Below, piece by piece: positions 2,314 through 35,221 of a stretch of DNA of 35,221 bases. How positions within the stretch are numbered: the stretch's first letter is position 1; the number at the start of each line of letters is the position of its first letter. A model generated the notes under the pieces. That model ran no database searches, was not told the DNA's origin, and saw nothing but the letters and a program-made list of their open reading frames with translations. The DNA comes from an uncultured Gammaproteobacteria bacterium (lineage in GTDB: Bacteria > Patescibacteriota > Patescibacteriia > JACQSD01), in NCBI GenBank assembly GCA_964358625.1, contig CAYHPG010000001.1, forward strand, positions 1-35,221, read 5' to 3'. Made by a program: the position numbers and the translations under genes.

Positions 2314-2925
2314 CTATCCGGCACCCTTTTTTCGAATAACCCGCATTGACGGAAGTACAACCTTCTCCTTCTTAATAAGTTCAATCACTTTTTCAACCAA
2401 TCGTTTCGGATTCGTATCATACACAATTTTCCCCGAACCTCTGTGACTTTTCGCTACAATATCGCGAATCATATCGGCGGCTCCTCCTGTTCCTTCCAAA
2501 ACACCAATAACTTTTTTATCTTCAAACGCAATCGTAAATTCGTTTAAGGTGCCGATGCGTCCGCAAATATTAATGACCGCATCAGACGAACGGATGAGGA
2601 GAAGGTTTCTTCCGGAATACTCAAACCCCGTGTACATGATGAGGTCGAAATAATCCGTCGGAAGTTTATAGGATTTTACATGCGCAATCTCGCTTGCCGC
2701 CGGAGAAATACCAAGCGATATCCCACCTTCTTCTTTTGCGCCAATCGCCGCCCAATACGGAATGCCGGTCGTAGCACCCGTCACAATAATGCCGTTTTGC
2801 CGAACAATTTCTCTCCCGACTTCTTTCGCAAGCTCCAATGTATCCTCGCTGCAAAGCTCGGTCTCCGCTGCTCCGGACACACAGATTTTATATTTAAGGT
2901 AAGAATTGCTAAGTTCTTGTGGCAT
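2314..2925 (-). CDS. LOG / TIGR00725-family Rossmann-fold protein
   Basis: Its features are KICVSGAAE, IVTGATTGIPYWAA and a GRIGTLNEF (GGxGTxxE-like) motif. The track ORF extends to 2985 but starts with TTG there; the first ATG is at 2925-2923. Confidence 0.65.
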   Translation of the reverse strand: MPQELSNSYLKYKICVSGAAETELCSEDTLELAKEVGREIVRQNGIIVTGATTGIPYWAAIGAKEEGGISLGISPAASEIAHVKSYKLPTDYFDLIMYTGFEYSGRNLLLIRSSDAVINICGRIGTLNEFTIAFEDKKVIGVLEGTGGAADMIRDIVAKSHRGSGKIVYDTNPKRLVEKVIELIKKEKVVLPSMRVIRKKGAG

Positions 2926-2974
2926 AATGTTAGTTATACTTTCAGCCAAATGCTGATCCGCCTTAGGCAGAAAT

Positions 2975-4324
2975 TTATAATTCAAATGAGTCCCCCAGCC
3001 CCGGCACGGTCACGTTCACTCCTAGTGTATCACGAATTTTAAATTTAAGCGCGTTTGCGGCCTCTTCTTCTCCTTGCACCAAAAACACTTTTTCAGGAAG
3101 CGGACGCATAGCAGCAACCAGTCCAAATAATCCATCTTGATCTGCGTGAGCAGAATAGCCGCCGATGTTTTGAATTTTCGCACGAACATGAATGGGTTCC
3201 CCGTGGATTGTCACTGTTTTTTCTCCTTCTAAAAGTCGTCTTCCCATACTCCCCTTTACTTGATACCCAATAATCAAAAGTGTGGAATGTGGATCCGAAA
3301 GATAGCGTTTTTCGTGATGGAGAATGCGCCCCGCGGTTCCATCTCCACTTCCCGCGATAATCATTTTTGGTGGTTTTATCGCATTGATCGCTTTTGATTC
3401 CTCACTTGTTAATGTAAAATGTAAACCCGGAAATTTAAAAATTTCGTCGCCACTTCGGATAATATACTGCGCAGATTGGTTAAAGTAGTTCTCATATTTT
3501 TTATAGAGTGCGGTCGCGTGGATCGCCATCGGACTGTCAATGTAAATAGGAATTTGCGGAACGCGATGATGCTCGACAAGATCATTCAATTCAAAAAGGA
3601 TTTCTTGTGTGCGCTCAAGGGCAAATGCGGGGACCATGAGTACGCCACCTCGTGCTATGGTATCTTCAATCGCACGCTCAAGATGAATTTTTCTCGTATC
3701 ACGATCTTCATGTAAGCGATTCCCATACGCAGACTCCATCACAAGATAATTCGTTGTCACAATTTTCGTCGGCGGCGGAAGTAACGGCGTTGGCGCATTC
3801 CCCACATCGCCCGTGAAAACAAGTCGCTTGCCTTCTGTTTCAATCACGACAAAAGATGATCCGAGAATATGCCCCGCATCTTCAAGCGTTATCGTAAAAT
3901 TGTTATTGAGTATATACGGCGTTTTATAGGTAAGCCCTTCGAAAAGCCGCTCTGTTGCGAGCACGTCATTTGCGCTATAAAGCGGTTTTGTGCCGTAACG
4001 CTCCGCCTCCTCTTCCATCAACTTTAAAGAGTCGTGCAGATTTAAAAGTGTAAGGTCGAGTGTCGGCGGCGTCGCAATAATTTTGCCATGAAACCCATCA
4101 TGCACAAGTTTCGGCAATCGCCCCACATGATCCGCGTGTGCATGTGTCAAAAAAACAGCAGCAATCTCTTTCGGATCATACACCCACGGCGCATAATTTT
4201 TTTCTCGACAAAAACGATCACCTTGCGCCAAACCACAATCGACCAAAATTTTTGTTGCACCACTTTCAATCAAGTGATTCGCGCCCGTAACACTTTTTGC
4301 CGCACCGTGAAAAGATATTTTCAT
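2975..4324 (-). CDS. MBL-fold beta-CASP family metallo-hydrolase (RNA-processing nuclease-like)
   Basis: The 449-aa ORF has THAHADHVGRLP (HxHxDH), later GDVG and ESAYG motifs, and a C-terminal YSAHADQ typical of beta-CASP / CPSF-like nucleases. Confidence 0.85.
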   Translation of the reverse strand: MKISFHGAAKSVTGANHLIESGATKILVDCGLAQGDRFCREKNYAPWVYDPKEIAAVFLTHAHADHVGRLPKLVHDGFHGKIIATPPTLDLTLLNLHDSLKLMEEEAERYGTKPLYSANDVLATERLFEGLTYKTPYILNNNFTITLEDAGHILGSSFVVIETEGKRLVFTGDVGNAPTPLLPPPTKIVTTNYLVMESAYGNRLHEDRDTRKIHLERAIEDTIARGGVLMVPAFALERTQEILFELNDLVEHHRVPQIPIYIDSPMAIHATALYKKYENYFNQSAQYIIRSGDEIFKFPGLHFTLTSEESKAINAIKPPKMIIAGSGDGTAGRILHHEKRYLSDPHSTLLIIGYQVKGSMGRRLLEGEKTVTIHGEPIHVRAKIQNIGGYSAHADQDGLFGLVAAMRPLPEKVFLVQGEEEAANALKFKIRDTLGVNVTVPGLGDSFEL

Positions 4325-5328
4325 GTGTTTTTACTGTCTTCACTGGCTTTACTTACCTCGCGTGATGGCGCCACCACCGGTACTGCATGGAGCTCACAAA
4401 CATTTGCTGCGTGCGCACCTACATCCTGATATGCGCTCGTTGCAGCAAGAGCGCCTTCCGCTGCTGCAGTAACGATTTGTTTAAATCCACCAGCCGCATC
4501 CGTCATATCCCCCGCCGCAAAGACGCCATCAACACTTGTTTTCATCATGCGATCGACAATCACCTCTCCTTTAGCATTCGTCGCAACGCCAAGTTCCTCT
4601 GGAATTGTCCCGCGTGGCACTGCGCCAATTGCGACAAACAAACCATCAAGCGCGAGCATATCTGAACCTGCAACTTTTTTTGAAAGACGCACCTGTTGTA
4701 ACTTTCTTTCACCAACGAGCTCTTGCACCTCCGTTTCAAAAAGCATCGTAATATTTTTTTTCTTTTTTACTATACTGCGATTGATTGGCTCCGCTCGATC
4801 GATATTTTTTTCACGTGCAATAAGGTACACATGCGCGGCAATATCAGAAAGTTGATTCACCCACTTTACTGCGCTGTCCCCTCCTCCAACAACACCAACA
4901 ATTTTATTCTTATACACTGGCCCATCGCAGGTTGCGCAATAATGGATACCCTTGCCTTTTAATGTACCCTCGTTTGGCAACCCTATTTTTCTGCGTTCCA
5001 TGCCAACCGCAAGAATAATCGTTTTGCCCTCAAAAAGTTCTTTTCCTACGCGTACTTGGAAACAATGATGGATATTTTTGGTAAGCTCTGCTTTTCCGCC
5101 AACCATGGTAACACCGAGCGCTTTTGCTTGTTCTTCCATGTTCTGCATGAGTTCGAACCCATCAATTTTTTTAAAACCCGGATAATTTTCAATGGGCCCA
5201 GCGGTACTTGTTTCGCCGCCAAACTCTTCATGAATGAGCATTGTGGCCATCTGATAGCGTGCAGAATAAATAGCAGCAGAAAACGCCGCCGCCCCCCCGC
5301 CTAAAATAATCGTATCGTAGTAATTCAT
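4321..5328 (-). CDS. thioredoxin-reductase-like flavoprotein (divergent paralog lacking the HRRxxxR NADPH motif)
   Basis: The 335-aa ORF has GGGAAAFSAAIY (FAD), a CATCDG redox motif and GGGDSAVKW. Where TrxB has VHRRDxxR it has IAREKNIDR. It also carries about 35 extra C-terminal residues. Confidence 0.8.
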   Translation of the reverse strand: MNYYDTIILGGGAAAFSAAIYSARYQMATMLIHEEFGGETSTAGPIENYPGFKKIDGFELMQNMEEQAKALGVTMVGGKAELTKNIHHCFQVRVGKELFEGKTIILAVGMERRKIGLPNEGTLKGKGIHYCATCDGPVYKNKIVGVVGGGDSAVKWVNQLSDIAAHVYLIAREKNIDRAEPINRSIVKKKKNITMLFETEVQELVGERKLQQVRLSKKVAGSDMLALDGLFVAIGAVPRGTIPEELGVATNAKGEVIVDRMMKTSVDGVFAAGDMTDAAGGFKQIVTAAAEGALAATSAYQDVGAHAANVCELHAVPVVAPSREVSKASEDSKNT

Positions 5329-7341: not shown

Positions 7342-7371
7342 AATTTGAACCTGTAGAAAAAGTCATTTATT

Positions 7372-7447
7372 CTTCGAGCGGAGTCCGCCAGCTAGCGGAC
7401 GAAGTCGAGAAGTAAGCCACATTGTAGCTTCTCGACTACGCTCGAAG
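7372..7447. repeat. full copy of the intergenic palindromic repeat (nested-hairpin element)
   Basis: The outer stem is CTTCGAGCG (7372-7380) / CGCTCGAAG (7439-7447). Inner hairpin A is GTCCGC / GCGGAC (7383-7400). Inner hairpin B is GTCGAGAAG (7404-7412) / CTTCTCGAC (7428-7436). Related copies lie at 260-277 and 34118-34166. Confidence 0.7.
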
Positions 7448-8690: not shown

Positions 8691-9155
8691 CTAAAAAGAT
8701 GTAAAGACTGTATCCCCTATTTTCCACCCCAAACGTTCCGCTGTCCCCGCATTCACTTCAAGAACCCTCGTCGCCGGCATTTTGGGTGCATAAAAAGGCA
8801 AAGCAGAATCCAGCGCACCAAATGCCGGCGCGGGAACGCGTGGAAGAATATCAACGATCTTCCCATCATCAATCCAAATCATATCAAGAGGAATAAACAT
8901 ATCTTTCATCCAAAAACGCTCTGCACTTTTTTCCGGAAAAATAAAAAACATCCCATGATCTTGCGCGAGTGTCATGCGCCCGGAAAGACCCCTGCGCCGC
9001 GTTTCTTCATCACGCGCAACTTCGACAATAATAGATTGTCCACCAATCACGACACGAAATTCTTTCATAGGAGAAAGCCAATAGATCATTCGGAGAATGA
9101 TCGCTGTGGCAATCACAATGCCAAAAATAATAAATGGACGGCGAGAAGAATTCAT
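8691..9155 (-). CDS. DUF192-domain protein with an N-terminal TM anchor
   Basis: The central GLSGR...MFFIFP...FWMKDMFIPLDMIWID pattern is typical of DUF192 (COG1430). The ATG at 9155 forms an ATGA overlap with the upstream stop. The track ORF starts at a GTG at 9176. Confidence 0.75.
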   Translation of the reverse strand: MNSSRRPFIIFGIVIATAIILRMIYWLSPMKEFRVVIGGQSIIVEVARDEETRRRGLSGRMTLAQDHGMFFIFPEKSAERFWMKDMFIPLDMIWIDDGKIVDILPRVPAPAFGALDSALPFYAPKMPATRVLEVNAGTAERLGWKIGDTVFTSF

Positions 9156-10261
9156 TTTTTTATCCAACGTATACACATGAGTCCCACTCCCAAAACCAGC
9201 ATACTTGCCGACAATACAACAAACGCAATAAGCTTCCCTCTACTCTGCAGGAAAAGCGCAGTCACGCCAACGTATGCGGTGAGAAAATAGAGAAGGAGAA
9301 CTGTTTTCCGATGCGAGAGCCCAATATCAAGGAGTCGAAAATGCAAATGCTTGCGATCAGCGCGAAGCGGCGAATGTCGTTCCCAAAAAAGCCGTCGCGC
9401 AATCACCCAAAGAACATCCAATATAGGAATACCAAAGACCAGCGCGGTTGTTGCAACTTTACTGCCCGAGACGATAGAAAGCGCTCCAAGCATGAATCCC
9501 GCAAAAAGCGAGCCGCCCTCACCAAGAAATATCTTTGCCGGATGCCAGTTCCAAAAAAGAAATCCAGCAAAACACCCTGCGAGCAGAATGGCAAGGAGCG
9601 CTGTCACTGGCTGATCAACGACGGGATCAAGCGCTAATGCGGCAACAATCAATGCGCCGATAATCGTTACCCCCGGCACAAGGCCATCGAGCCCATCCAA
9701 AAACTTCGTTGTATACATCATGCCAAGGAGCCAAAGAAAGGTAAAGAGATCTGCGAGAATAGTAAATTTATACGGCCAACCACGAAACCAAAAAAGAATT
9801 TTTTCATAATCATCAAGACGAATCTGCTCTGTTCCCAAGGGTCCGCCAAACGGATTTGTAATATACGTAATCCCAATCCCACTTGCAATGATAACAAGCG
9901 CTGCAGCAATCGGCCAAATAATTTGCTTGCGCGGCGACAACGAATAGCGATCATCAAAGTATCCCCCGATCATAAGAAGAAGCGCGCCAAGAAGCATGCC
10001 AAGAAAATACTTCGCTTTAATTTGGCTTTCAGGAAAATCAATTCCCCAAAGATACAAGAAAAGAACGAGGATAAAAAAAGAACAAAAGATTGCTATACCG
10101 CCGAGCAGTGGCGTTGGCCGCGTATGAATCTTCCGTGCAGGAGCTTGCGTGCGCTCATCGACAATATGAAAACGCAATGCGACTCGCCGCACGAGCGGAA
10201 CAAATAAAAAAGAAAGTCCAACAGCGCCGAAAAATGCAATGAAAAAAATGCCTATTGACAT
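9152..10261 (-). CDS. MraY/WecA-family polyprenyl-phosphate N-acetylhexosamine-1-phosphate transferase (glycosyltransferase family 4)
   Basis: The 369-aa polytopic membrane protein has HTRPTPLLGG, GGYFDDRYSLSP, FLDGLDGL and NWHPAKIFLGEGGS motifs characteristic of this family. I cannot tell from sequence whether it is MraY or WecA/TagO-like. Confidence 0.85.
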   Translation of the reverse strand: MSIGIFFIAFFGAVGLSFLFVPLVRRVALRFHIVDERTQAPARKIHTRPTPLLGGIAIFCSFFILVLFLYLWGIDFPESQIKAKYFLGMLLGALLLMIGGYFDDRYSLSPRKQIIWPIAAALVIIASGIGITYITNPFGGPLGTEQIRLDDYEKILFWFRGWPYKFTILADLFTFLWLLGMMYTTKFLDGLDGLVPGVTIIGALIVAALALDPVVDQPVTALLAILLAGCFAGFLFWNWHPAKIFLGEGGSLFAGFMLGALSIVSGSKVATTALVFGIPILDVLWVIARRLFWERHSPLRADRKHLHFRLLDIGLSHRKTVLLLYFLTAYVGVTALFLQSRGKLIAFVVLSASMLVLGVGLMCIRWIKK

Positions 10262-14942: not shown

Positions 14943-15000
14943 TCAAAAAGTCATCTGCGAATTATGCACAAGCAATCATTGCAATACCAAAAAAATAAGT

Positions 15001-15038
15001 TGATTCGATTTCCTCACGATCGTGAGGTTTTCGAATCA
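15001..15038. repeat. 38-nt palindrome copy 1 (TGATTCGATTTCCTCACGA|TCGTGAGGTTTTCGAATCA), possibly a bidirectional terminator
   Basis: It is a near-perfect palindrome matching 15633-15670 at 35 of 38 positions (differences only at positions 9-11 of the left arm). The stem CCTCACGA / TCGTGAGG is followed by TTTT. Confidence 0.7.
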
Positions 15039-15046
15039 ATATCATT

Positions 15047-15589
15047 TCAGGATGGATGCATCACACGAAAAACATGAATCCATTTTTCGCTTTTCGTTTC
15101 TTTAATAAATTCACGTATCTCGTCAAAGACCTCACAATTACTGAACCATACGCTGCGTTCAACAATTTGAAAACCGCATTCCTTCAAGAAAGAACGGAAC
15201 TGATCGCGCACATCGCGAGCGCGCTCGGGAATATCGAACGTGACAAGGACACCTTCATTGATCGCGCATTTTCGAGCGCATCGTATTTTTTCTTTTCGTA
15301 TAATAGACTTACCCTTCTCCGTAAGGACAACGGAAATATTTCCTGCTGCATGCTGTATTGTAATCCATTTTTGGCGTTGTAATACGGCAAGTAGTTGCCG
15401 TTGCTCATATTCTGCTCGACGGCTCCAACTCGCGCGCACACCATCAAGACTGCTCCCGCCCGCTAATTGACGATAACTTCGACGATCAGTAAGCGCGGCG
15501 ATTAAATCAACAAAATCCACGGTTGCACTATGCATATTTTCAGCAATCGCGCATAACAACTGTTTTCTTCGAGAAATTTTCTTTTCCAC
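15047..15589 (-). CDS. PaaX-like / Cas2-fold domain regulator (winged-helix plus ferredoxin-like C-terminal domain)
   Basis: The central LQRQKWITIQHAAGNISVVLTEKGK looks like a winged helix. The C-terminal GVLVTFDIPERARDVRDQFRSFLKECGFQIVERSVWFS matches the Cas2 / PaaX-C pattern. The start is a GTG at 15589; an alternative ATG lies at 15535. Confidence 0.55.
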   Translation of the reverse strand: MEKKISRRKQLLCAIAENMHSATVDFVDLIAALTDRRSYRQLAGGSSLDGVRASWSRRAEYEQRQLLAVLQRQKWITIQHAAGNISVVLTEKGKSIIRKEKIRCARKCAINEGVLVTFDIPERARDVRDQFRSFLKECGFQIVERSVWFSNCEVFDEIREFIKETKSEKWIHVFRVMHPS

Positions 15590-15632: not shown

Positions 15633-15670
15633 TGATTCGAAAACCTCACGATCGTGAGGTTTTCGAATCA
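15633..15670. repeat. 38-nt perfect palindrome copy 2 (TGATTCGAAAACCTCACGA|TCGTGAGGTTTTCGAATCA)
   Basis: It is perfectly self-complementary across all 38 nt and pairs as a copy with 15001-15038. Confidence 0.75.
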
Positions 15671-15746
15671 AAACAAAAAAAGGTAAAGTTCGCGTGAACC
15701 CCACCCCATGATGAGTGCCATCTATTAACTCCCCTCCTTTCTGCTC

Positions 15747-21043: not shown

Positions 21044-21155
21044 AATAAATTTAAAGTTGAAAAATCAAAATGGAAAATGACAATTTAAAATGTAAAAAAT
21101 AATTTTATCATTTTGCATTATAATTTTGATTTTTGATCTTTGCATTTTACATTAC

Positions 21156-29222: not shown

Positions 29223-29226
29223 ATCT

Positions 29227-29374
29227 ACTGTGAATTACGAAACTCTCTTTATTCCCTCTCCCTCAATGGGAGAGGGTTAGGGTGAGGGTGGAAATAAGGG
29301 GCTTTTTTTACACACCCTCCCCTTAGTCCCCTCCCATCAAGGGAGGGGAAAACCGGAGTTTCGTAATTCACAGT
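29227..29374. mobile_element. MITE-like 148-bp composite palindrome with 19-bp terminal inverted repeats
   Basis: The TIRs are ACTGTGAATTACGAAACTC (29227-29245) and GAGTTTCGTAATTCACAGT (29356-29374). ATCT flanks both sides. The three internal hairpins are CCCTCTCCC/GGGAGAGGG, GAGGGTG/CACCCTC and TCCCCTCCC/GGGAGGGGA. Confidence 0.55.
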
Positions 29375-29917
29375 ATCTACTTTTACCCTAATACTTTGAC
29401 GGAAAAAAGCAAGTTACAAAAAAAGAACCCGGGTGAAACACGGCGTTGTTAACCTTCCCGAATTAACACGCAATGCTCCACCCAGGGATACAAAATGGGA
29501 GAGTGAATTTCAGTCTTTTCTTCTGCAGGGGTCCATTTATAAAGTTGAGCATATACTATCGTGACAAGAAAATTTCTTTTCTTATATGGATAGTATGCCT
29601 TTCTTCAAGAATCCCCTGTAAAAGACAGCCAGTTGCTGCCGGTTCCTAAGTGCGCATACGTTTATCCCGCATGGGTTAAAAGCCCATTTGGCAAGGGATT
29701 CCTTTCGCTCGCTGGTAGGTCCAGAAAGCACGGGTTCTGTTTAAGGCATTGCCATTGGAGAAAGAAAAATAAATTCTCCCATCCACAGAACCTTTATAAG
29801 GAATCCAACAAACGGCGACTTAAGCAGTAACCGCACCTCTGACTTTCACTCACCCTCCCGAATAAAGAACGATCTGATTAGTATCAGAAAGGAGCATAAC
29901 AGAAGGAGTAAAAAGCG

Positions 29918-31309: not shown

Positions 31310-32449
31310 TCAAACAATCACGCCGCCGCCAAGCATGTGTTCTCCCTGATAGAAAACACATGCCTGCCCGGGCGTAACTGCGCGTTGCGGGTTTTTGAAC
31401 TCGACGGTAACCCCCTCTCCCGCTCTCTTCACTGTCGCCTCCTGCAACGCTTGACGATAGCGTATTCTTGCCTTGCAGTCAAGAGGAAAAGTTTGCACAT
31501 CACGGGAAATCCAATGAATACTCTCAAGAAATGCTTCTTTACGATACAGCGCCGCGTCCTCTTTCCCTTGCGCAACAATAACTCTATTCGCTACAACATT
31601 TTTCTCTACAACAAAATACGGTGTTCCGCCACCCGGACTTCCGATGCCATGACGCTGGCCGATTGTCATGTAGTGCGCCCCTTCATGCGTTCCCACCACT
31701 TCCCCGCTTGTGGTTACGAGTGCACCCTCTCGCGGCGCTAATCGCGTCTTCAAAAAATCTCGCACCGGAATCTTCCCCAAAAAACATAATCCTTGGCTGT
31801 CCTTGCGATTCGCCGTCGGCAACCCCCACTCTTTTGCCATTTTCCGCACCTCCGTCTTCGTATACTCACCAATTGGAAACAGCACGTAACGTAATTGCTC
31901 TTGAGTAAGTGAATAGAGAAAATAACTTTGATCTTTATTTAAGTCCTTCGCTTTGAGAAGCGCATAGGGGTGACACGCGGAGGGGGTCCCACCGCCCGCC
32001 CCAGCAGGTCCCTGACCGATGCGGTCGGATGGGGGTGTAGCGTGGCAGGACCCCGAACCATGAGTTAATCGAACATAATGTCCAGTAGCAATTGCGTCCG
32101 CACCCTCTGCAAGCGCGCGCTTCAAAAAAATCCCAAACTTGATTTCCCGATTACACATGATGTCCGGGTTCGGCGTCCGCCCTGCTTCATACTCCGCAAA
32201 AAAATACGACACTACCTTCTCGTAATATTCCCGCGACACATCCCACACTTCAAATGGAATTTTTAAGTGCTCTGCAACCGCGCTCGCATACCGAACATCC
32301 TCCTCCCACGGACAGCCCTGCATTAAATCCTCCAAATCCGGCGACCACACTTTCAAATACACGCCACGCACAACATGGCCCTCTTTTTGCAAGAGGGCCG
32401 CTGCGACAGAGGAATCCACTCCACCTGATAAACCCACAAATACTTTCAT
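31310..32449 (-). CDS. mnmA: tRNA 2-thiouridine(34) synthase MnmA with a GC-rich internal insertion
   Basis: The protein contains VGLSGGVDSSVAA (PP-loop), GRTPNPDIMCN, ATGHY, NKDQSYFLY and DSQGLCFLG. There are about 25 extra residues between GHYVR and LLKAKDLNKDQSYFLY. Confidence 0.9.
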   Translation of the reverse strand: MKVFVGLSGGVDSSVAAALLQKEGHVVRGVYLKVWSPDLEDLMQGCPWEEDVRYASAVAEHLKIPFEVWDVSREYYEKVVSYFFAEYEAGRTPNPDIMCNREIKFGIFLKRALAEGADAIATGHYVRLTHGSGSCHATPPSDRIGQGPAGAGGGTPSACHPYALLKAKDLNKDQSYFLYSLTQEQLRYVLFPIGEYTKTEVRKMAKEWGLPTANRKDSQGLCFLGKIPVRDFLKTRLAPREGALVTTSGEVVGTHEGAHYMTIGQRHGIGSPGGGTPYFVVEKNVVANRVIVAQGKEDAALYRKEAFLESIHWISRDVQTFPLDCKARIRYRQALQEATVKRAGEGVTVEFKNPQRAVTPGQACVFYQGEHMLGGGVIV

Positions 32450-32450
32450 A

Positions 32451-33053
32451 TTACTCCACCGTCACTCGCTCCATCACATCCCCTACGTGTATGCGGTCCA
32501 CGACATCTTGTCCAGAAATCACCACGCCAAAAATCGTATAGTTCGGGGGCAGGAAAGATGCATCATCAAGCATAATGAAGAATTGTGATCCATTGGTGTT
32601 TGGACCAGCGTTTGCCATGGCAACAATGCCCTTCGTGTACGCACGCTTTACCGGTTCATCTTCGAATTTATACCCCGGTCCACCCATACCATTGCCATTC
32701 GGATCCCCACCCTGAATCACAAACCCTTCTTCACGGCGATGAAAGGTGAGGCCGTTATAGAATCCCTCGCGTGCGAGTGTCAAAAAATTACTTGCTGCTT
32801 TCGGCGCTTCATTTCCAAACACTTCAAAAACAATCTCCCCTTTCGCGGTTACAATACGTACTTTTTTGTCATTACGCTCGGCTTCTGGCAATACACCCGG
32901 AAACGTAGTGTATGTCTTGCTTCGTACAGTAGCAGGATTTTCTTTTGGTGTCGTTGACTGCTCACTCACTATTTTTGGGGATCGCAATTTCCAAAATATG
33001 AACACACCGACTAAAAGAACGAATACGCCGAGGAGATATAAATAGTTCTTCAT
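32451..33053 (-). CDS. membrane-anchored cyclophilin-type peptidyl-prolyl isomerase
   Basis: It has an N-terminal TM helix followed by FYNGLTFHR...VIQGGDPNGNGMGGPGYKFEDE...GSQFFI. Confidence 0.9.
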   Translation of the reverse strand: MKNYLYLLGVFVLLVGVFIFWKLRSPKIVSEQSTTPKENPATVRSKTYTTFPGVLPEAERNDKKVRIVTAKGEIVFEVFGNEAPKAASNFLTLAREGFYNGLTFHRREEGFVIQGGDPNGNGMGGPGYKFEDEPVKRAYTKGIVAMANAGPNTNGSQFFIMLDDASFLPPNYTIFGVVISGQDVVDRIHVGDVMERVTVE

Positions 33054-34105
33054 AAAATAATTTCAATCCAGTCTTGTGGTGGAGTAAACCCATCACCACA
33101 GACGGTTTCAATAAGCGCGGTGCAAACTTTATACGGATCCATGCTCGCCGCCGGACGACGGTCTTCAATATAGCCGTATCCCTGATTTGCTGTTGCCATC
33201 GGAATACGGATGGATGCCCCGCGATCAGAAACTCCATAGCGGAACGTGTTGATATCGCACGTCTCGTGTCGCCCAGTCAAACGTTTATCATTTTCTGCTC
33301 CGTACACGGCGATATGTTGTTTGTGGCGCTCACCCAATTTTTTACATGCCGCAGTCGCGATCTCCATGCCGCCCGGTTCCCGCATTGCTTTCGTACTAAA
33401 ATTCGTATGCGCGCCTGCACCGTTCCAGTCGCCTGCAATGGGCTTCGGATCAAGCCGCGCAGAAATACCAAACTGATCAGCCAAACGATACAAGATCCAT
33501 CGCGCAAGCCATAGTTGATCCGCAACGTGAGGTGCACCAATAGCGCCAATTTGAAATTCCCACTGCGATGGCATCACCTCCGCATTTGTCCCGGCAATGG
33601 CAAGTCCCGCTTTCATACACGCTGTCGTGTGTGCTTCGATCAAAGGTGTACCATAGACCTCATCACTCCCCACGCCACAATAATATCGCCCTTGGGGTGC
33701 CGGGAAACCCGCACCTTCCGGCCAACGATATGGCCGAATGCCATCGGCGTCATAGAGCGTATATTCTTGCTCAATGCCAAACCACGGTTCATGCGCTTTG
33801 TATTTTTCGCTCGCTTCACGTAACCGCGCGCGTGTGTTGCTTCTGTGTACTGAACCATCGGCATTCAATACTTCACACATCACCAAAATATGCGGCTCTC
33901 CACGAATGGGATCCGGAATAAAATAGACGGGCTTCAAAGCGCAATCGCTATTTTTTGTTTCTGCTTGTTCCGTGCTCGAGCCGTCAAATCCCCAATCAGG
34001 AATTTCCTGCAAACGTTCCGGGCGAGTCGGTAATATTTTTGTCTTTGAACGCAACTTCGCACATGGCTTTCGACCGTCGATCCAGATGTATTCGGCTTTT
34101 ACCAT
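33050..34105 (-). CDS. glnA: glutamine synthetase, type II (eukaryote-like short form)
   Basis: The 351-aa ORF has AEYIWIDGRKPCAKLRSKTK, WFGIEQEYTL, YYCGVG, NGAGAHTNFS and a C-terminal EDRRPAASMDPY, which together form the GSII pattern. Confidence 0.85.
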   Translation of the reverse strand: MVKAEYIWIDGRKPCAKLRSKTKILPTRPERLQEIPDWGFDGSSTEQAETKNSDCALKPVYFIPDPIRGEPHILVMCEVLNADGSVHRSNTRARLREASEKYKAHEPWFGIEQEYTLYDADGIRPYRWPEGAGFPAPQGRYYCGVGSDEVYGTPLIEAHTTACMKAGLAIAGTNAEVMPSQWEFQIGAIGAPHVADQLWLARWILYRLADQFGISARLDPKPIAGDWNGAGAHTNFSTKAMREPGGMEIATAACKKLGERHKQHIAVYGAENDKRLTGRHETCDINTFRYGVSDRGASIRIPMATANQGYGYIEDRRPAASMDPYKVCTALIETVCGDGFTPPQDWIEIIL

Positions 34106-34117
34106 AAAAAAATACTG

Positions 34118-34166
34118 TTCGAGCGAAGTCGAGAACTTTCCTTATTGACTTCTCGACAAGCTCGAA
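34118..34166. repeat. copy of the intergenic palindromic repeat family (short form)
   Basis: TTCGAGCGAAGTCGAGAA ... CTTCTCGACAAGCTCGAA has the same arms as 7372-7447 but lacks the inner GTCCGC hairpin. Confidence 0.65.
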
Positions 34167-34189
34167 GAATACTTATTTTGATTACACTA

Positions 34190-35218
34190 TTATATTACGA
34201 AAGAGCATTGAGTTCTGTCAAACGATGGCCTAATATTTTCCTGTATTATCGTCTGCAATATCTTCGCGTTCCCATGCTGTAAAAGCCCAAGATACGATTG
34301 CAACATGCTGTTATTTCCCTGTTTCTCTGCTAGACGGCGCATCATTCTTCTCTTTGTCGCCGTGCGCAGAACCCGATGATCCATAAAATGCACCCAGCCA
34401 AGAAAATCAACGCCAGAAGCAACTGTACGAAGAAAAATCTTATCCGGATGCATTCGTAAACGCAGACGATCCCATAAAAACTCCTCCATGGCGGGCAACA
34501 AGCGCTGTAACCATTCTTTGTTCGAAGACAGCACAACAAAATCGTCGGCATAGCGAATATAATAATGCGCCTTGAGCTTGTGCTTTACAAATTGATCAAA
34601 TGTATTCATGTACATATTCACGAACAACTGCGACGTCAGATTCCCAAGAGGAAGACCGACCCCTTTCTCTCGCGTATAAAAACTTCCGAGGATTTTCGAA
34701 ATGAGCAAAATAATCTCCCGATCGGGTATATACTGCTCAAGAATGCTCAAAAGAATACGCTGATCGATCGAGGCAAAAAACTTTCGGATATCACATTGCA
34801 GTACCCATACTGTTTTCGTTTGCCCTTCTGATACGCGATACGCAAAAGAACAAAATTGCTCTATCGCCTTGTGCGTTCCTTTACCCTGCCGGCACGAGTA
34901 CGAATCGGCGATAAACGTCCGATCAAAAAACGGATACAATATCCGATACAACGCGCGGTGCAATACGCGATCGCGCACCGATGCTTTGTGGATATTTCTT
35001 GGTTTCGGATCCGCAATATCAAATGCTTCATATGGTGAATGCCGATACGTCTTTGCAACCAAATCATTATGGAGCGCGATAATATTCCCCATAAAATCAA
35101 AAGCAAACTCCTGCACGTCCTTTCTGCTACGTTTCCCACGCACAAATTCCTTCCACGCGTCTAGAAGATTTTCGAGCGAAATGATATCGTGATAACTATA
35201 ATCAAATTGTAATTTCAT
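34190..35218 (-). CDS. diversity-generating-retroelement (DGR)-type reverse transcriptase
   Basis: The 342-aa ORF has RT motifs 1-7: PKPRNIHKASVRDRVLHRAL, SYSCRQGKGTHKA, VLQCDIRKFFASID, GLPLGNLTSQLFVNMYM (the DGR-diagnostic LGxxxSQ) and YIRYADDFVVL (YxDD). It has no maturase or endonuclease extension. Confidence 0.85.
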   Translation of the reverse strand: MKLQFDYSYHDIISLENLLDAWKEFVRGKRSRKDVQEFAFDFMGNIIALHNDLVAKTYRHSPYEAFDIADPKPRNIHKASVRDRVLHRALYRILYPFFDRTFIADSYSCRQGKGTHKAIEQFCSFAYRVSEGQTKTVWVLQCDIRKFFASIDQRILLSILEQYIPDREIILLISKILGSFYTREKGVGLPLGNLTSQLFVNMYMNTFDQFVKHKLKAHYYIRYADDFVVLSSNKEWLQRLLPAMEEFLWDRLRLRMHPDKIFLRTVASGVDFLGWVHFMDHRVLRTATKRRMMRRLAEKQGNNSMLQSYLGLLQHGNAKILQTIIQENIRPSFDRTQCSFVI

Positions 35219-35221
35219 ATT

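Follow-up and report, generated by a model that had tools for sequence, protein, structure and literature searches.

Among the genes of the window (the whole 35,221-nt stretch of DNA analysed here), the last one encodes a reverse transcriptase (RT) and lies directly at the edge, which raises two questions: does this RT belong to a diversity-generating retroelement (DGR), and if so, where is the remainder of the cassette? An earlier note on this DNA had described a 342-aa RT with LGxxxSQ and YADD motifs, had classed it as DGR-type and had placed the missing parts probably just off the edge. The features that bear on the first question are as follows.

34190..35218, minus strand: reverse transcriptase gene, assigned below to the DGR type; intact 342-aa ORF with ATG start, last gene of the window
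34628..34648, minus strand: RT motif 4, LGNLTSQ, aa 191-197, aligned to IGSLTSQ of Brt from Bordetella phage BPP-1
34541..34552, minus strand: catalytic YADD box, RT motif 5, aa 223-226, aligned to YMDD of Brt
35219..35221, minus strand: AAT, the last 3 nt, between the RT ATG and the window end

The gene and both motifs are thus as the note had them, and its statement that the window stops 3 nt past the RT start codon is correct as well: just AAT lies between the ATG and the end at 35221.

The class of the reverse transcriptase

The 342-aa ORF is a real gene and not a chance ORF; the Pfam family RVT_1 matches it with an E-value of 6.3e-24, and both motifs of DGR RTs, [ILV]GxxxSQ and the catalytic YxDD, are found in it. 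The former, located in RT motif 4, is the signature of DGR RTs, while group II RTs carry QGxxxSP at the same position. Compared with its two closest public homologues, the RT gene has dN/dS ratios of 0.14 (L002) and 0.10 (L001), which indicates that it is under purifying selection.

Among all PDB chains, phmmer ranks 8ub7_A first (E 1.3e-45, 159 bits, residues 12-312), which is BPP-1 brt, as a 108-aa stretch with 100% identity confirms. The motif-for-motif alignment with Bordetella Brt that had been made by eye is borne out. The signature blocks of the window RT and of 8ub7_A read GVGLPLGNLTSQLF and GVGIPIGSLTSQLF around motif 4, and RYADDFVVL and RYMDDIVVL around the catalytic box. The best of the other classes in this search were group II intron RTs with 72-75 bits, followed by Cas6-RT-Cas1 (49 bits) and Drt3a (29 bits). 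By match scores, no other RT class comes as near to the window RT as Brt does. This far stronger similarity, compared with group II, retron and defence RTs, together with the DGR motif and the occurrence of its homologues in DGR cassettes, supports the assignment as a DGR-type RT. The note's classification stands: 159 bits for Brt compare with at most 75 for group II RTs, and the closest homologues adjoin bAvd genes and TR/VR pairs (template and variable repeats) with adenine-specific mismatches. The RT is thus shown to be intact, of the DGR type and under purifying selection, and we read it as a functional DGR RT.

Two other classes have to be weighed. A defence-type RT, that is, a retron, DRT/UG, Abi or CRISPR-associated RT, is suggested by weak-to-moderate PADLOC and NCBIfam matches, namely to the RT part of Cas1_IIIb (E 6e-40), to UG17, UG4, Drt3a and retron St85. 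The PADLOC top match, PDLC01136, is labelled just 'RT', a label too vague to interpret. The NCBIfam scores are far below the curated cut-offs, with 55 bits against 235 for retron St85, 71.5 against 200 for Drt3a, 46 against 390 for Drt2 and 20 against 250 for AbiA; Drt2/3a/4/5, retron St85 and AbiA all stay several-fold under their thresholds. Moreover, the window contains no Cas1 fusion, CRISPR array or extra effector domain, and the homologues of the RT are embedded in DGR cassettes. We regard a defence function as very improbable; the cassettes of the homologues effectively refute it.

A group II intron-encoded RT/maturase, the name that an NCBI-style annotation would give and that several homologues carry in their sources ('group II intron RT' or 'retron-type RT'), has almost nothing left to recommend it and is effectively refuted: the best NCBIfam match is indeed TIGR04416 (group_II_RT_mat), but its 148.6 bits are far under the cut-off of 300, solved group II RTs reach at most 75 bits compared with 159 for Brt, motif 4 reads LGxxxSQ and not QGxxxSP, the protein has just 342 aa with just 84 nt following its stop codon, and no group II intron RNA was found with Rfam, either in the window at the gathering threshold or, in any meaningful form, between 33800 and 35221 in a permissive search (E <= 1). 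For annotation, the gene is hence to be named a DGR RT rather than a 'retron-type' or 'group II intron' RT.

Cassettes of the closest homologues and the sequence expected beyond the window

Among 5.8 billion proteins searched, thousands of homologues with lengths of 327-347 aa were found; the best 120 derive mostly from Patescibacteria/CPR where the source names an organism. The closest ones (58-85% identity) stem mostly from Patescibacteria MAGs and from one single-cell genome, the top two being P0001 (85%, on contig L002) and P0002 (82%, on L001). At a maximum of 85% identity to public matches the sequence of the window RT is new; its DGR is visible in truncated form only. A look-up of the exact RT protein gave no record, and an exact 46-mer from the 5' end of the gene is absent from the genome and metagenome contig collections. 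The exact glnA protein led to the same strain in ENA assembly ERZ1292638, present there at about 3x coverage: its contig L003 is 99.94% identical over 1,582 nt (window 33021-34602) and ends inside the RT gene, at window position 34602. When the N-terminal 200 aa were used as query, to detect an incomplete gene copy on a small adjacent contig, nothing above 88% identity was obtained.

The nearest relative with a complete cassette is L001 (GCA_000405185.1, ASNX01000005.1), in which the following parts were located.

9131-9254: VR, at the 3' end of the target ORF upstream of the RT
9593-9716: TR, the non-coding copy of the 124-nt direct repeat
9723-10079, minus strand: avd, 118-aa bAvd-like protein, on the opposite strand between TR and RT
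from about 10127: RT, 82% identical to the window RT

Of the 21 mismatches between TR and VR of L001, 18 are located at TR adenines. The same order, a target gene with 3' VR, then TR, then avd on the opposite strand, then the RT, recurs in the closest homologues, and nearly all TR/VR mismatches in these cassettes are at adenines of the TR. L002 carries bAvd 52 nt upstream of its RT, in the opposite orientation, and at 210-332 a homologue of the L001 TR with 88% identity; this contig stops short of the target gene. L009/L010 (68% RT identity) have the same cassette order with 18 of 19 TR/VR mismatches at A, and in L011 (66%) the gene order is also retained, with a repeat pair of 200 nt where one would be expected. 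Only 19 of 49 base mismatches of the latter pair are at A, because the alignment extends past the repeat core. The most distant of these relatives, L005 (58%, annotated as Candidatus Rokuibacteriota), shows a TR/VR pair immediately before the RT, all 20 mismatches of which are at A, and two more VR copies that have diverged further. Within L005, three tandem paralogous target genes are found at 2918-5105, and one TR matches their 3' ends with graded identities of 85%, 75% and 68%, which indicates a multi-target DGR.

The avd genes of the relatives were confirmed by the Pfam family bAvd. In six of six relatives with upstream flank, avd is located immediately upstream of the RT (in L004 as judged by eye), and wherever the flank is long enough, the upstream side of the RT holds Avd, TR and target. 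The distance between avd and RT varies from about 50 nt (L001, L002) to an overlap of the called genes by ~10-20 nt (L009, L011); avd itself has a length of 360-440 nt and is placed on the opposite strand, before the TR. Downstream of the RT, the relatives L001, L002, L009 and L011 have a different housekeeping gene each (mraZ and genes for a polysaccharide synthase, an RRM protein and phosphoglucomutase). Hence, the cassette ends with the RT, and its chromosomal position varies among genomes. The order target-TR-(avd)-RT corresponds to the architecture B3, 'TR-(avd)-RT', of Wu et al. 2018 (PMC5758913).

The opposite-strand avd separates TR and RT at 9593-10127 in L001, at 210-748 in L002 and at 5475-6001 in L009. 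Were TR and RT of this RT clade transcribed together as a single RNA, antisense avd would follow the TR. In BPP-1, the position downstream of the TR holds spacer RNA that primes cDNA synthesis.

From these cassettes an expectation for the sequence beyond 35221 can be derived. We consider it highly probable that the window RT is part of a chromosomal DGR, of which the window holds only the 3'-terminal gene, in a Patescibacteria/CPR bacterium of apparent Hainich groundwater origin, and that the cassette belonging to this RT copy lies off the window. With comparable confidence, and by analogy with L001, avd, TR and a target gene of ~235 aa would follow in the same arrangement within 1.6-2 kb past the end. 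The first element, again by analogy with the closest relatives, would be a spacer of ~50 nt between the divergent avd and RT genes, of which 35219..35221 are expected to be the first bases. It would be followed by avd, encoding a bAvd-like four-helix-bundle protein on the strand opposite to the RT, and by a template repeat of ~125 nt directly adjoining avd at its 3' end. A target gene of ~235 aa with no Pfam match would be found ~340-380 nt past the TR, and its last ~125 nt would constitute the variable repeat. As in other members of the family, the RT-Avd complex would copy the TR RNA into cDNA, inserting random nucleotides opposite template adenines. This cDNA would take the place of the VR and thereby diversify the ligand-binding surface at the C-terminus of the target protein.

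Cassette parts sought in the window and the end of the contig

Within the window, the RT gene is preceded along the contig by the following features.

34106..34189, minus strand: RT-glnA spacer, 84 nt, with a long imperfect hairpin (-28 kcal/mol, z = -4.75) and then T7
33050..34105, same strand as the RT: glnA, GSII-type glutamine synthetase (Pfam Gln-synt_N and Gln-synt_C on the identical protein)
31310-32449, minus strand: MnmA homologue, with a Gly/Pro/Ala-rich insertion of ~25 aa, …HATPPSDRIGQGPAGAGGGTPSACHP…, inside the HUP domain

Otherwise the window consists of a run of same-strand housekeeping genes (MnmA, cyclophilin, GSII, AlaRS, MgsA, Tgt and ClpB) and two tRNAs, and this surrounding points to a bacterial chromosome as the setting of the RT. 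An association with a phage found no support: no close relative of the RT was found in IMG/VR, and phage RTs reach just ~35-39% identity. In the MnmA homologue, the Pfam match spans 226 residues for a profile of 202 positions.

The cassette parts were sought throughout the window. Self-comparison of the 35,221 nt revealed no repeat whose mismatches were biased towards adenine. The only direct repeat of at least 60 nt, an 86-nt pair at 4871/5782, was rejected as TR/VR: its copies are 71% identical, lie in adjacent paralogous genes and differ at all four bases. The earlier statement that the window has no TR/VR pair is thereby upheld. Tblastn with the Avd proteins of the relatives found no Avd homologue (best E 0.68) and tblastn with their target proteins no target homologue (best E 0.5); blastn with their TRs gave nothing significant, the best E-values of the Avd, target and TR probes being 0.43-0.7. 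Since avd of the relatives adjoins the RT start on the opposite strand, it would be off the edge here, and the TR, expected upstream of the RT, would likewise be located beyond the window.

The RT-glnA spacer is not a TR, as it bears no similarity to the TRs of the relatives; it is rather a terminator-like or REP-like element. It does contain, as described before, a palindrome of a repeat family: copies of its arm GTTCTCGACTTCGCTCGAAC with 3 mismatches are found in intergenic DNA at 259-278 and 7428-7447, compared with 0 expected by chance. The palindrome is not conserved downstream of the RT in the relatives.

More generally, an intergenic palindrome family, TTCTCGAC(T/A)(T/A)CGCTCGAA and its complement, is found at 34117-34165, 259-278 and 7365-7447 (0 expected by chance), and at two of these three sites inverted copies of the motif form long hairpins. 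The family probably represents REP-like or terminator elements. Two further imperfect self-complementary palindromes are intergenic, one of 106 nt and AT-rich (21048-21153), the other of 152 nt and G-rich with CCCTCCC/GGGAGGG arms (29226-29375); they are related in sequence neither to each other nor to the spacer-arm motif. In addition, a 39-nt palindromic sequence, TGATTCGAAAACCTCACGATCGTGAGGTTTTCGAATCAA, occurs at 15000-15038 and 15633-15671 with 92% identity, and its two copies flank a 180-aa ORF (15047..15589) like terminal inverted repeats.

An alternative to a cassette beyond the edge is an orphan or remnant RT, whose avd/TR/target module was lost or separated by rearrangement at this site. 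That no cassette part is present in 35 kb and that the window ends 3 nt from the ATG, not at a TR/VR, would fit such a history. So would the variable DGR position: in the nearest glnA relative (L012, 89% identity, on a 655-kb contig), no RT is located beside glnA and the neighbours differ, so that synteny gives no independent support for a cassette off the edge. The ORF is intact, though, retains all catalytic motifs and has dN/dS ratios of 0.10-0.14; nucleotide homology to the cassette-bearing relatives L001 and L002 continues to 35221 and 35220, the last base or two of the window, and each relative with upstream flank has avd immediately next to the RT. We therefore consider a loss or separation of the module unlikely; had it occurred, the RT would either be in decay or act on a TR and targets at another place in the genome.

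Slightly more doubtful still is the possibility that the RT is a stand-alone copy, which uses the upstream module of another DGR locus of the same genome or has one in common with it. If true, several diverged RTs would use one avd/TR module, and a shared upstream module would be the kind of repeat that breaks an assembly right at the RT start. A possible precedent is the Hainich Patescibacteria MAG H51-bin046_1, which contains two RT genes with 73% nucleotide identity, each at a contig end (contigs L018 and L019) and preceded by an identical stretch of 54 nt (L006 1-54, L007 1-54). The pattern in H51-bin046_1 suggests a branch of the assembly (de Bruijn) graph at a duplicated avd/TR-side module of two DGR loci.

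For a complete cassette continuing past the edge, which remains our preferred reading, the cause of the break has to be considered separately. The note had assumed that the rest of the cassette is off the edge and that the assembly broke at the TR/VR repeats. The first part agrees with the upstream position of these elements in every relative with flank and, by this analogy, is likely to be correct. The second part did not hold up: judged by the relatives, the nearest edge of the TR should be located ~400-500 nt past the window end, beyond spacer and avd. As the window already ends 3 nt before the RT ATG, a TR/VR collapse explains the break less directly than had been proposed. The 85%-identical relative co-occurs in ERZ1292638, and we may speculate that a repeat similar to the one in H51-bin046_1, or strain mixing with this relative, is behind the break.

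Comparison with known DGRs

The best match among solved structures, Brt of Bordetella phage BPP-1 (PDB 8ub7 series), belongs to the same RT class, shares the IG/LGxxxSQ and Y(M/A)DD motifs and has a similar size (328 aa compared with 342 aa). The match is distant, however, and even the closest phage-encoded RTs are only ~35-39% identical to the window RT. The setting differs, too: the DGR of BPP-1 is encoded by a phage, whereas the window RT is chromosomal. Furthermore, avd, TR and brt of BPP-1 are on one strand, while in the relatives of the window RT avd lies in the opposite orientation, between TR and RT.

CPR/Patescibacteria commonly carry DGRs, which are thought to diversify surface or ligand-binding proteins of these host-dependent bacteria with small genomes. 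The B3 layout reported for CPR DGRs in PMC5758913 is exactly that of the closest homologues of the window RT; in the window itself, unlike in these B3 DGRs, only the RT is visible. The same paper states that most CPR DGR targets have no Pfam match, as is the case for the ~235-aa target of the relatives, and it cites the CPR/DPANN survey of groundwater from which its CPR set stems. Descriptions of CPR DGRs, of their RT clade, of the inverted-avd architecture and of targets without Pfam match hence already exist (PMC5758913), and the window RT extends a family of thousands of public sequences by one, without a new principle.

Closest to the locus is the nearest complete relative, L001, with its 82% identical RT and a full cassette of target with VR, TR, avd on the minus strand, and RT. 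In L001, a polysaccharide synthase gene is located downstream of the RT, compared with glnA in the window, and these different neighbours indicate that the two cassettes occupy different genomic positions.
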